Notes under the pieces: generated by a model
Databases searched by the model: none
What the model was told of the DNA's origin: nothing
What the model saw: the letters and a program-made list of their open reading frames with translations, nothing else
Position numbers and translations under genes: made by a program
Shown: piece by piece, positions 19,359-29,013 of the stretch
Layout of the letters: each line of letters starts with the position of its first letter
Numbering within the stretch: the stretch's first letter is position 1
Assembly (NCBI GenBank): GCA_965249555.1
Contig: OZ252243.1
Location: forward strand, 832,001-896,000
Direction of reading: 5' to 3'
DNA from: Nitrosopumilus sp.
GTDB lineage: Archaea; Thermoproteota; Nitrososphaeria; Nitrososphaerales; Nitrosopumilaceae
DNA length: 64,000 nucleotides

Positions 19359-19586
19359 TTTATTTCTACCATATCATTTTAGTAGGAAATATTGAAAGGT
19401 TATCAATTAGGAAAACTCAACTTTGTGGGTAATTTTGTCAATTAACTGAGACTTGAGCATAATGATTTACAAAAATAAAACCAAAACTTTTCTCTAACAA
19501 CAAAGCATTCTTTTCACAATCCTTGGATTCTCACTTCCAATTACACAGACGTTATACAAAATCTTTTTCATATCTTGTGATGTATA

Positions 19587-19722
19587 CCTACTGTTGGGCC
19601 TGAGAGTTGAATTATTACTGCCATGTACAAGGGCGTTACACAGACTAACTCAAAGTGAGCGGAAAACAAAATACCACATAGATGGCAAATGGGAGCATTC
19701 CGCTAGATCAGGCAATTTGATC
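19587..19722 (+). ncRNA. Candidate IS110 bridge RNA
   Basis: Two stem-enclosed internal loops. ATTATTACT (19611-19) and TTACACAG (19636-43) match the target flanks plus core; ATGGGAG (19689-95) matches the element end plus core. Confidence 0.7.
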
Positions 19723-19725
19723 AAA

Positions 19726-19735
19726 AAGGAGGTGA
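19726..19735 (+). promoter_or_regulatory. Shine-Dalgarno sequence of the IS110 recombinase
   Basis: AAGGAGGTGA 4 nt before ATG at 19740. Confidence 0.7.
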
Positions 19736-19739
19736 TGGT

Positions 19740-20641
19740 ATGATCAGCATAGGAATTAATATTCACAAGAAGAAATGTGTTGCAACAAAATAGGAATCCA
19801 GAAAGAAGCTAGAGCAGACAAGCTTTGATAATACCACAAATGGAATAATGGGTTTTATCAAACACGTCAAAAAGACATATGGCAATGACATACAGGCAGT
19901 GTGTGAGTCAACTGCAAACTATTGGATCAGACTACATGACACACTAGAGGACCATGGAATTGATACAATTCTTGCACATCCTGCAAAGACCAAGATAATT
20001 GCACAGGCAAAGCTAAAAAACGACAAACTTGATTCAGACGTATTGGCAGGACTTGCTAAGAGCAGACATGGTGTACAGCTCATTCGTACCAGAAAAATAC
20101 TATAGAGACTATACAGTCTGGTAAGAACCAGACTGAATCGCGTGCGAAATGTATCAAAACACAAAAACATGATTTATGCAATACTTGCAAAATATGATTA
20201 CACCCACAAAGACATTCTCGCAGAAAGGAGTACGATGGTTGCATGAAATTAATCTGATAGAATGGCAATGGATGCATATCTTGATACCATAGATATGACA
20301 CAAAAACAGATCAACACAATTGAGATAAAGATTGCAGTAATGAGGATGAGAAAACAAGACTACTAATGACCATTCCTGGAATAAACTATGTCACGGCATT
20401 GACAATAATTTCAGAGATAGTTGACATCAGCAGATTTGCATCAGCAGAAAAACTAGTCTCATATGCAGGACTTGCACCATCGCACAGGAATGCAGATGTG
20501 CACCGAGGAGGCGGAATAACAAAGAGGGGTTCTGCATGGTTACGTAACGCAATGGTAGAGGCTGCAAATACTACAGTACGATTTGATGAAAGAATGGGAT
20601 CATTCTATTTCAGAATTGCAAAGAGAAGAAAACAAAGGTGA
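19740..20641 (+). pseudogene. IS110 DEDD recombinase pseudogene
   Basis: MISIGINIH (first Asp mutated to Asn), TAG at 19791, CESTANYW, KNDKLDS, later frameshifts, TIPGI..SYAGLAP..ITKRG with the catalytic Ser region lost. Confidence 0.9.
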
Positions 20642-22118
20642 CAGCTGCAAGACCGGATGCTTGCAATAATCCGGGTATATGCTAACAAATTCTGAAAGTG
20701 TATCGTACACAAAATCATGAACTGACACAACGAAAGTATAAGATGCAAGGCATATCTGAGATGTCCTGATTCAGCAAAGCATGCTAGGAAGTGTCCTCAG
20801 TAGGGTTGGAGACGATTTCGTATGGGAGTTATAATACACTGCCAACTGATACACCAACACGCAAATCAGCACGAATGATTGTACGTTCTCAAATCCTTTC
20901 ACTGGAACTGTTCTAATGCTAAACGTATCCTTGATTATTTCAAATAGTGCTTCAATTGATATTTTTCTCTGAGAATGTAATTTCCGACCAACTGCTGAAT
21001 TGTAAAACTCTATCAACTTTATTCTGTCTGGTGGCGTAGAATAGTATTTTTTGACTGGACAGATCAATCTCATGGCATTATTCTTAGTTGACTCGTATAG
21101 TTTAGAATCATCATATGCCGGATCACACCATATACTATTCATCAATCCAGAAAGTGACCCAATCAATTTCTCATATGGCTTACTGTCATGAACATTTGCA
21201 GCAGTTACACATGCAGATAATGGAACTAGCCTTTCCTGTACTACAACTCATGTGTAGTTTGTATCCATACATCCAACCCTTTGATTTGGAGAATCCCCAC
21301 AATTGGTAAATGATTCTTTTTGATGTCTGATTTGTGCCATACTGGACCTGAAGCTTTTAGCATTGAACTATCAACTGATGCTGATTCACTATTCACCAAT
21401 CCTTCTGAGACAAACAAATCTCCTACAGTGTTAACAATTTCATTGATTGGCAAGCATTGAAATCTTCTGTCAATTGTCCTTCTGTCAGGGATTTAGTCTG
21501 CAAACCTTGAGTAATTTGTCATTGGTACATTTGATTGAGAGAAAATAATGCAGTGTGTTGTCACTTGGAATTCGCATCCATGACTTTATGATGAATAACT
21601 GAACCATTAGAACAGTCGAATGGACATATGGTAATCCTCGTCTCACTGCATTCTCATACAGAGACAGTGTTCCAACCAGATACAAAACACCAATAAGAAA
21701 TGACTCACATAGAATCTTGCTAGGGATTTTTATTTGTTTTGTAATCATTTCAATGAACAAAACATAATGAGATCTTTGGCTTTTTCTATTTGAATAATTT
21801 GAGAAATCGGTTAAAAATGAGAATGGATTATGCCCATGTCTCAAGTAATATGTCAGAACTGGATAAATAGTGCAATTACTGTTTGACTAAATTAACGAAT
21901 TGCGGATCAAAAGCTAAAAAAATATATTTTATTTAATAATTTTTAGGCGATCAATTTTTTTATGTTGTAATTTTTAGTCAATATAAAAAAGGTTCTGGTG
22001 CAAAATGTGATCAGATCATCAAAATCCACTACATCTGTTTCATTCAATAAGAAAAATCTGATCGCTTTCACTATTTTATTATGATTACATTTAAAAAATC
22101 AACTTTTTAAAATACTAC

Positions 22119-27631: not shown

Positions 27632-28911
27632 CTCCCATACGAAATCGTCTCCAACCCTACTGAGGACACTTCCTAGCATGCTTTGCTGAATCAGGACATC
27701 TCAGATATGCCTTGCATCTTATACTTTCGTTGTGTCAGTTCATGATTTTGTGTACGATACACTTTCAGAATTTGTTAGCATATACCCGGATTATTGCAAG
27801 CATCCGGTCTTGCAGCTGTCACCTTTGTTTTCTTCTCTTTGCAATTCTGAAATAGAATGATCCCATTCTTTCATCAAATCGTACTGTAGTATTTGCAGCC
27901 TCTACCATTGCGTTACGTAACCATGCAGAACCCCTCTTTGTTATTCCGCCTCCTCGGTGCACATCTGCATTCCTGTGCGATGGTGCAAGTCCTGCATATG
28001 AGACTAGTTTTTCTGCTGATGCAAATCTGCTGATGTCAACTATCTCTGAAATTATTGTCAATGCCGTGACATAGTTTATTCCAGGAATGGTCATTAGTAG
28101 TCTTGTTTTCTCATCCTCATTACTGCAATCTTTATCTCAATTGTGTTGATCTGTTTTTGTGTCATATCTATGGTATCAAGATATGCATCCATTGCCATTC
28201 TATCAGATTAATTTCATGCAACCATCGTACTCCTTTCTGCGAGAATGTCTTTGTGGGTGTAATCATATTTTGCAAGTATTGCATAAATCATGTTTTTGTG
28301 TTTTGATACATTTCGCACGCGATTCAGTCTGGTTCTTACCAGACTGTATAGTCTCTATAGTATTTTTCTGGTACGAATGAGCTGTACACCATGTCTGCTC
28401 TTAGCAAGTCCTGCCAATACGTCTGAATCAAGTTTGTCGTTTTTTAGCTTTGCCTGTGCAATTATCTTGGTCTTTGCAGGATGTGCAAGAATTGTATCAA
28501 TTCCATGGTCCTCTAGTGTGTCATGTAGTCTGATCCAATAGTTTGCAGTTGACTCACACACTGCCTGTATGTCATTGCCATATGTCTTTTTGACGTGTTT
28601 GATAAAACCCATTATTCCATTTGTGGTATTATCAAAGCTTGTCTGCTCTAGCTTCTTTCTGGATTCCTATTTTGTTGCAACACATTTCTTCTTGTGAATA
28701 TTAATTCCTATGCTGATCATACCATCACCTCCTTTTTGATCAAATTGCCTGATCTAGCGGAATGCTCCCATTTGCCATCTATGTGGTATTTTGTTTTCCG
28801 CTCACTTTGAGTTAGTCTGTGTAACGCCCTTGTACATGGCAGTAATAATTCAACTCTCAGGCCCAACAGTAGGTATACATCACAAGATATGAAAAAGATT
28901 TTGTATAACGT
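27632..28911 (-). mobile_element. IS110-family element, copy 2 (same lesions as copy 1; bridge-RNA region about 28738-28873)
   Basis: CT cores at 27632-33 and 28912-13; identical ORF fragments. Confidence 0.9.
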
Positions 28912-29013
28912 CTGTGTAATTGGAAGTGAGAATCCAAGGATTGTGAAAAGAATGCTTTGTTGTTAGAGAAAAGTTTTGGTTTTATTTTTGTAAATCATTA
29001 TGCTCAAGTCTCA
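28912..29013 (+). mobile_element. Isolated 3' tail and TIR of the DDE IS
   Basis: Encodes CVIGSENPRIVKRMLCC-stop, then TTATGCTCAAGTCTCA. Confidence 0.85.

Follow-up and report, generated by a model that had tools for sequence, protein, structure and literature searches.

The window, a stretch of 64,000 nucleotides that corresponds to G000:C1:832001-896000 of a complete 2.23-Mb genome, contains two nearly identical copies of an IS110-family element, the first of which carries a 193-nt element end upstream of the remains of its recombinase gene. The host is an ammonia-oxidising archaeon as read from genome content, which includes an archaeal AmoA gene (PF12942, 390 bits) detected with a profile that matched none of 14 control genomes. 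An archaeal SSU rRNA model reaches 1455.8 bits in the same genome; bacterial control genomes matched this model too and it is therefore non-discriminating. The element comprises the following features, given in window coordinates.

19547-20828, plus strand: IS110-family element, copy 1; 1282 bp with AG at both ends, junctions read directly
19547-19548, plus strand: core dinucleotide AG, left copy (CT on the opposite strand)
19554-19563, plus strand: subterminal inverted repeat of the left end, lying 5 nt in from the core, with one mismatch in the window copy
19740-20695, plus strand: recombinase gene remains (DEDD_Tnp_IS110 and Transposase_20), disrupted by several frameshifts and by a codon-18 stop
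20696-20826, plus strand: non-coding right end of about 130 nt between the gene remains and the right core
20814-20823, plus strand: right subterminal inverted repeat, located with the geometry of homologues
20827-20828, plus strand: core dinucleotide AG, right copy, from junction comparison among copies and empty sites
27632-28913, minus strand: copy 2 of the element (99.9% identity to copy 1); its RNA module occupies 28736-28870

The left junction reads ..TTACAC-AG-ACGTTATA at 19547 and the right junction reads ..GTATGGG-AG-TTATAAT at 20827. Genome-wide, there are eight full-length copies at 94-100% identity together with dozens of fragments, and the copies all start AG-ACGTTATAC and finish GTATGGG-AG, with AA at the end of one copy. 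The geometry of the subterminal repeats is common to homologues of the element (core, 5 nt and repeat on the left; repeat, 3 nt and core on the right), with repeats of 10 bp in the studied genome; in the homologues, 8-14 bases match.

The initial annotation had proposed that the core is present at both junctions and that removal of the element restores its target. For the empty-site comparison, 150 bases from each side of the window copy were joined through one AG by script, and 18 further genomic sites carry this query without interruption, at 93-97% identity; they are copies of a DDE-transposase element. Not one of them matches the reconstructed site exactly: twelve have an AA core, five have AG with TTACAAT on the right and one is gapped. 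A second target class, ..CTTGAT-AG-TATTCAAG.., is occupied by the copies at genome positions 1798472 and 2207468 and also exists as uninterrupted paralogues, three of which are identical at the site. Insertion is thus seamless, with AG (CT on the opposite strand) at both junctions and an identifiable empty site, and the proposal holds by way of paralogous sites, none of them identical to the restored target of the window copy.

The sequence surrounding the window copy (window 20829-21900 and 19440-19546) is itself the DDE-transposase element (PF01609 on frame 20771-21166), of which there are at least 18 uninterrupted paralogous copies and within which the IS110 element is inserted. The two window copies are inverted and lie about 6.8 kb apart; they have at least 107 identical left-flank bases in common and their right flanks diverge from the first base past the core, a pattern that indicates a rearrangement or a one-sided event rather than two clean insertions. 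Among the contigs of four sequencing runs, joints that skip 1280-1283 bases occur, and such a joint was considered as an empty site of the window copy. The contig we inspected differs from the window at 19 of 229 right-side bases and most likely represents a paralogous, never-occupied copy of the host element, which adds nothing to the empty-site comparison. Two other contig joints, 19603 to 20608 and 19611 to 20656, correspond to short deletion derivatives of the element.

Fragments of the window gene match the Pfam families DEDD_Tnp_IS110 (PF01548) as well as Transposase_20 (PF02371), both of which are also matched by P0001 and by intact homologues. The best local frame and two homologues score 216-224 bits against NCBIfam NF033542 (cut-off 140), a model named 'IS110 family RNA-guided transposase' that already labels the protein as RNA-guided. 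Missing from the window copy is the serine codon at the position aligned with the family's conserved serine, described as the nucleophile in the IS621 literature (PMC11208158). An open recombinase frame is absent from all eight full-length copies, the longest being a frame of 309 aa in the copy at 2207468, and a genome-wide search for the family returned no intact member. Seven of the eight full-length copies share three frameshifting deletions, 1, 10 and 7 bases long, when compared with the copy at 2207468 (at about columns 566, 721-730 and 812-818 of the alignment of the eight), which indicates that a defective lineage was amplified. The recombinase gene is broken in all full-length copies of this genome; the window copy is therefore a relic, and no present activity is expected of the family here. 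Intact homologues occur in related archaeal genomes; that at L016, for example, has a 376-aa frame with both Pfam domains and 224 bits against NF033542, in a genome that has three open frames of 343-376 aa. Searches of the PDB matched IS621 and ISCro4 over the C-terminal domain only (IS621, E 7e-12, residues 158-292), and a tblastn search against plasmids gave matches of at most 35% identity, generically named 'IS110 family transposase' and carrying no subgroup information.

Several short, MITE-like deletion derivatives are also present in the genome, in which roughly 64-130 left-end bases are joined to roughly 180-220 right-end bases. Those at G000:C1:2219372-2219669, 672482-672707 and 1498947-1499269 lack the gene and all or part of the first loop of the RNA module described below. 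The genome also harbors a second IS110 family, 35% identical to the first, with three open frames of 371-373 aa; one member is L054:957-2072, equivalent to G000:C1:709356-710471. One target class of the first family, ..ATATTGAC-AG-ATTCAAC.., falls in the recombinase gene of this second family, within the conserved Transposase_20 region (L054:1766-1768).

A conserved fold in the non-coding left end

The initial annotation had read the non-coding end as two stem-closed loops, with GAGTTG at 19604-09, GCC/GGC at 19620-22/19632-34, TAACTC at 19646-51, AGCGGAA at 19658-64 and TTCCGCT at 19698-19704, and had placed guides in them at 19611-19 (ATTATTACT), 19636-43 (TTACACAG) and 19689-95 (ATGGGAG). 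All of these lie where it put them, and the predicted module can be laid out as follows.

19590-19724, plus strand: candidate bridge/seekRNA module; covariance-model match, 108.4 bits, E 1.2e-31
19598-19603, plus strand: outer closing helix P0, 5' half, pairing with 19708-19713; in MFE and centroid folds
19604-19609, plus strand: stem P1, 5' half, closing the predicted target-binding loop and pairing with 19646-19651 (helix 1)
19611-19619, plus strand: putative guide G1, loop 1 5' side (ATTATTACT); 8/9 against the reverse complement of core plus right flank
19620-19635, plus strand: inner hairpin P1b of the target-binding arm (helix 2 of the comparative fold)
19636-19643, plus strand: putative guide G2, loop 1 3' side (TTACACAG); 8/8 against left flank plus core
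19644-19645, plus strand: dinucleotide following G2, identical to the first two left-end bases, handshake-guide-like
19659-19663, plus strand: stem P2, 5' half, closing the predicted donor-binding loop and pairing with 19700-19704 (helix 3)
19663-19668, plus strand: putative fourth guide, loop 2 5' side; 4/6 against the reverse complement of left-end bases 2-7
19672-19687, plus strand: inner hairpin P2b of the donor-binding arm (helix 4 of the comparative fold)
19689-19695, plus strand: putative right-end guide, loop 2 3' side; ATGGGAG, the last five right-end bases plus core

The folding energy of the single sequence is no better than that of shuffled sequences (z = +1.39 and +0.41), although both arms still appear in the centroid alone, together with the outer helix, and because single-sequence energies matched shuffles we relied on comparative folding. 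Across 401 genomes of the same order, a search at the protein level identified homologues in 72 at E <= 1e-20, and the upstream regions of 20 homologues with 35-78% protein identity were aligned with the window region. RNAalifold, applied to 20 sequences from different genomes, returned four helices with 19 pairs, 15 of which exhibit compensatory changes. With the proviso that such counts somewhat favour a structure derived from those very sequences, 92.4% of cells pair, compared to 35-44% when partners are slid by 1-3 columns, and the covariation score is 0.62, compared to at most 0.10 when slid and 0.23 when shuffled, with none of 500 shuffles as high. Helix 1 (P1) has changes on both sides at all four of its pairs and helix 3 (P2) is paired in 99% of cells, while an outer helix equivalent to P0, built from differing sequences, was seen by eye and without a formal count in nearly all homologues. 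At two of the closing pairs, 17 and 16 of the 20 sequences, respectively, have U-G; these would become C-A mismatches on the opposite strand, which places the structure on the recombinase-sense strand. The conserved two-loop fold, which the initial annotation had named as a test of its reading, is thus found in the homologues, and the long non-coding end would encode an RNA structured around two internal loops.

A covariance model built from this alignment finds the module at 46 places across 49 sources, at 22 places in the whole of the studied genome and, in a phylum-wide sample, in 8 of 151 genomes at E <= 1e-5. At E <= 0.01 the model gave no match in L018, L033, L034, L037, L043 or L044; with filters off, its only match is a weak one in L034 (E 0.0065), downstream of the gene, and it has none at the second IS110 family of the studied genome (L054, L055). 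Rfam contains no relevant match at gathering score in the window, nor a relevant one at E <= 10 in 19400-20900. One homologous locus (L046, G235:C1:1676500-1685500) has three element copies within 7 kb, the two adjacent ones in tandem orientation, and these copies carry a GC-rich insertion of about 36 nt in the loop-1 hairpin.

Matches of four guides to flanks and element ends

To keep the guide tests non-circular, element borders were fixed by geometry alone, under a rule that requires core plus 5 nt on the left, 3 nt plus an identical core on the right and a repeat that starts with AT. This rule gave unique borders for most elements, including 34 of the 46 covariance-model matches; an inverted-repeat search without the geometric constraint was too noisy in AT-rich DNA. 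Among the elements left without borders, L015, L026, L041, L009 and L011 are truncated or rearranged, and the others are L027 (an indel in the repeat), L040, L051, L007 (right core AA) and L029 (contig end).

Guide/flank pairings were compared with shuffled pairings across 28 non-redundant elements that remained once identical rows were merged and after L031 (which is without loop 1), L020 and two L046 rows (in which a long insertion misaligned loop 1) had been left out. G1 matches its own right flank at 5.18 of 7 positions on average (3.57 +/- 0.20 when shuffled) and G2 matches its own left flank at 4.43 of 6 (1.98 +/- 0.25 when shuffled), and in neither case did any of 20,000 shuffles reach the observed value; these tests overstate independence, since relatives inherit guides and targets together and by our own count about a dozen distinct combinations are represented. 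Guide/target covariation across genomes, another test named in advance, is therefore present for both G1 and G2, with matches beyond those of every shuffled pairing. On sequence complementarity, G1 would pair with the plus strand and G2 with the minus strand, such that the two sides of loop 1 appear complementary to opposite target strands and overlap at the 2-nt core.

Loop 2 appears complementary to the two ends of the element itself. Its match to the downstream end had been anticipated by the initial annotation, and covariation between guide and end now accompanies it: the right-end guide is an exact 7-mer match in 33 of 34 rows, across the end types ATGGGAG, ATGGATG, ATGAGTG and ATAGATG. 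The fourth guide would adjoin stem 2, lying just after it, and seems to be degenerate in the window copy. Among 16 distinct pairs, this left-end guide matches its own element at 4.5 of 6 positions versus 2.5 of 6 with other elements, and the match is complete (6/6) in L017, L019 and the L046/L047 group versus only 4/6 in the studied genome. All four guides therefore covary with the flanks or ends that they match. Additionally, both of the handshake-like bases that follow G2 match in 23 of 33 rows.

The CT core that had been ascribed to the family holds for part of the clade; in another large part (the L021-L035, L025-L028 and L030-L038 groups) the core is TG/CA, and the right-end guide changes to match. 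The position of the core within the 5' guide varies by 0-2 bases between subfamilies.

Guide variation and targets among co-resident copies

Copies within the studied genome differ most at their guides. Over the 17 distinct left ends, variation affects 9 of the 17 guide positions compared to 17 of 103 positions elsewhere (Fisher p = 0.002), some of the latter 17 stemming from one deletion derivative. The target guides comprise six 5' and six 3' alleles, which occur in 11 combinations. A direct comparison of the window copy with the copy at 2207468 illustrates this variation, as the two have differing guides and differing targets, each matched on both sides, and all five guide differences track the flanks.

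Many copies nevertheless fit their own left flank poorly: the 3' guide is an exact match in 6 of 23 copies and has at most one mismatch in 10 of 23. When every 3'-guide allele present in the genome is considered, by contrast, 13 of 15 distinct left flanks have a counterpart with at most one mismatch, versus 3.7% of random AG sites. We infer from this pattern that the RNAs of co-resident copies may act in trans. Supplying the RNA in trans is reported to work experimentally for IS621 and ISEc11 (PMC11208160, PMC11187229), and half-match insertion, which a preprint reports for IS621, could add to the poor fit of own guides.

On the right side, 2 of 24 distinct flanks fit in the 5'-guide register of the window copy with at most one mismatch (control 1.2%), while 12 of 24 fit the 5' guide when its seventh base is skipped (control 4.8%). 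Eleven different right flanks start AACC and fit 5' guides of the form A[A/T]GGTTACT only with one guide base skipped. Two 5' alleles (ATGAATACT and ATGGTTACT) and two 3' alleles (TTACACAG and TTTGATAG) are present in all four combinations, with the guides 17 nt apart, which implies that copies have exchanged sequence by recombination or gene conversion, or that parallel changes arose repeatedly.

These observations allow a tentative extension, which we consider possible though on balance doubtful, whereby the target-binding loop serves as a combinatorial, trans-acting guide library, a defective lineage and its deletion derivatives have been amplified, and half of the right flanks pair with a one-base bulge. 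If true, co-resident copies would routinely share and recombine bridge RNAs and the 5' guide would tolerate a register shift, and this mesophilic archaeal clade, with its RNA either upstream or downstream of the gene, would be material for new programmable recombinases.

Relation to known RNA-guided recombinases

The IS621 bridge RNA has been described by Durrant et al. 2024 (PMC11208160) and Hiraizumi et al. 2024 (PMC11208158), and the studied element resembles the system reported there in several respects. Both place the RNA gene upstream of a recombinase gene with DEDD and Tnp domains, within the non-coding end, and two internal loops are assigned to the target and to the element ends, in that order (PMC11208160). 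Each loop would likewise read both strands with the 2-nt core at the 3' end of each guide, and the two bases past the 3' target guide match the donor in the manner of handshake guides (PMC11208158). The differences are that the 5' guide of the studied element would pair with the recombinase-sense strand and read the flank adjoining the right end, that an outer helix closes both arms of the predicted RNA, that resemblance between the recombinases is confined to the C-terminal domain (E 7e-12, residues 158-292) and that the repeats are 10 bp, whereas 2-3 bp is reported for the IS110 group (PMC11208160). As judged by its guides, the element does not follow the order that defines the IS110 group in the narrow, IS621-like sense; that order is reversed. 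A similar comparison holds for ISEc21, an element of IS110 type for which an RNA encoded in the upstream non-coding region and targeting of conserved codons in IS3 transposase genes are described (PMC11187229); here a target class lies in the recombinase gene of the second IS110 family. The guide order given for ISEc21 is that of IS621, opposite to that of the studied element (PMC11187229).

Reversal of the guide order is a published difference between IS1111-type and IS110-type seekRNAs (Siddiquee et al. 2024, PMC11187229). In the IS1111-type seekRNAs of ISEc11, ISKpn4 and ISPa11 the top-strand match is 5' of the bottom-strand match (PMC11187229), an order that the studied element appears to share provided that the top strand of that work is the transposase-sense strand, and its subterminal repeats fall within the 7-17 bp range given for the IS1111 group (PMC11208160). 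The mirrored polarity relative to IS621 that the initial annotation pointed out is therefore real, but it is not a new feature. From their sequences, the guide order and 10-bp subterminal repeats are of IS1111 type even though the RNA gene is predicted upstream of the recombinase gene. That position, found here and in most relatives that we examined, differs from the downstream position of the IS1111 group, for which exceptions are described in the form of an upstream RNA region in ISMtsp17 and long non-coding regions on both sides in ISHvo10 and ISAcp5 (PMC11187229). In L039 and L042, whose homologues are 39-40% identical, the module lies directly downstream of the gene, as in the IS1111 group. 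These modules (L039:1304-1453, minus strand; L042:2348-2473, plus strand) accompany a left end of only about 50 nt, and by eye their 3' guides, GGAACAG and TTGACAG, track their left flanks. The C-terminal motif reported for the IS1111 group is GL-P----S(T)G (PMC11187229); the best local frame of the studied element reads G-L-A-P-S-H-R-D-S-A, with A rather than G as its last residue, and homologues are similar.

We consider it very probable (roughly 0.88) that the region represents an IS110-family element's 5' non-coding end and encodes a bridge RNA (seekRNA) that reads target and element ends through two loops, and the original proposal of an archaeal IS110 bridge RNA is in this form supported by the fold and by covariation of guides with both targets and ends. 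The RNA would form a three-way junction. In its target-binding arm, the 5' and 3' sides of loop 1 would read the right and left flanks, respectively, and in its donor-binding arm the sides of the internal loop would read both ends of the element itself, right and left. If IS621 and ISEc11 are taken as analogues, the RNA would be made and bound by the recombinase, the element would form a circle, the RNA-bound recombinase would bring this circle into contact with the target, and strand exchange would take place at the core.

An alternative is that the non-coding end matches the flanks by coincidence and that the region is a mere leader or promoter of the recombinase gene. The unremarkable single-sequence folding energy and the lack of a matching Rfam family are what such a region would present, but the fold is conserved with compensatory changes, the guides covary with flanks and ends across genomes and variation between copies is concentrated in the guides, and we regard coincidence as extremely improbable. 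The loops might instead have been copied from the target after insertion, as a record of the site rather than a guide to it, and guides are indeed the most variable part of copies that are otherwise 94-100% identical. Copying predicts that every copy matches its own flank, however, and this match is exact in only 6 of 23, while the fit of 13 of 15 distinct flanks to some allele in the genome suits guides that act in trans; we also know of no mechanism that would copy a target into the loop, and we hold this explanation to be as implausible as coincidence.

The ends of IS200/IS605 elements read their cleavage sites as single-stranded DNA. Guides that worked in this way would be compatible with the present data insofar as the transcript of the module is deduced and G-T wobble is possible in DNA too. 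The protein of the studied element is an IS110-family DEDD recombinase, however, and RNA binding and RNA dependence are reported as proven for IS621 and for ISEc11 and ISEc21, which have the same architecture (PMC11208160, PMC11187229), making single-stranded DNA guides very unlikely. A bridge RNA that reads target and element ends accordingly remains our preferred explanation of the locus.

There is good support that the element follows a known scheme of RNA-guided recombination, and it represents no new kind of system or mechanism. Large catalogues of bridge RNAs and of archaeal IS110 recombinases exist already: 662 archaeal IS110 recombinases have been counted (10.1101/2024.06.21.599552), bridge RNAs are predicted for most ISfinder members (PMC11208160) and a 2026 preprint reports clustering of 181,180 IS110-adjacent intergenic sequences from bacteria and archaea. 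Among the papers listed on IS110 and bridge RNA in archaea, none concerned the present clade as judged by title or abstract; relatives of the element may be listed in ISfinder-wide supplementary tables.

This clade now comes with defined borders, identified empty sites, the complete set of four guides and a covariance model. A large set of repeats in the studied genome is thereby explained for annotation purposes, and intact homologues with AG or TG cores, such as that with the 376-aa frame at L016, are candidates for those who build tools. With regard to the biology of the family, the element would offer a clean case from nature, in ammonia-oxidising archaea, of an IS110-family member whose choice of target is guided by RNA, and its clade would link, within a single group, the RNA-gene position of the IS110 type with the guide order and repeats of the IS1111 type.
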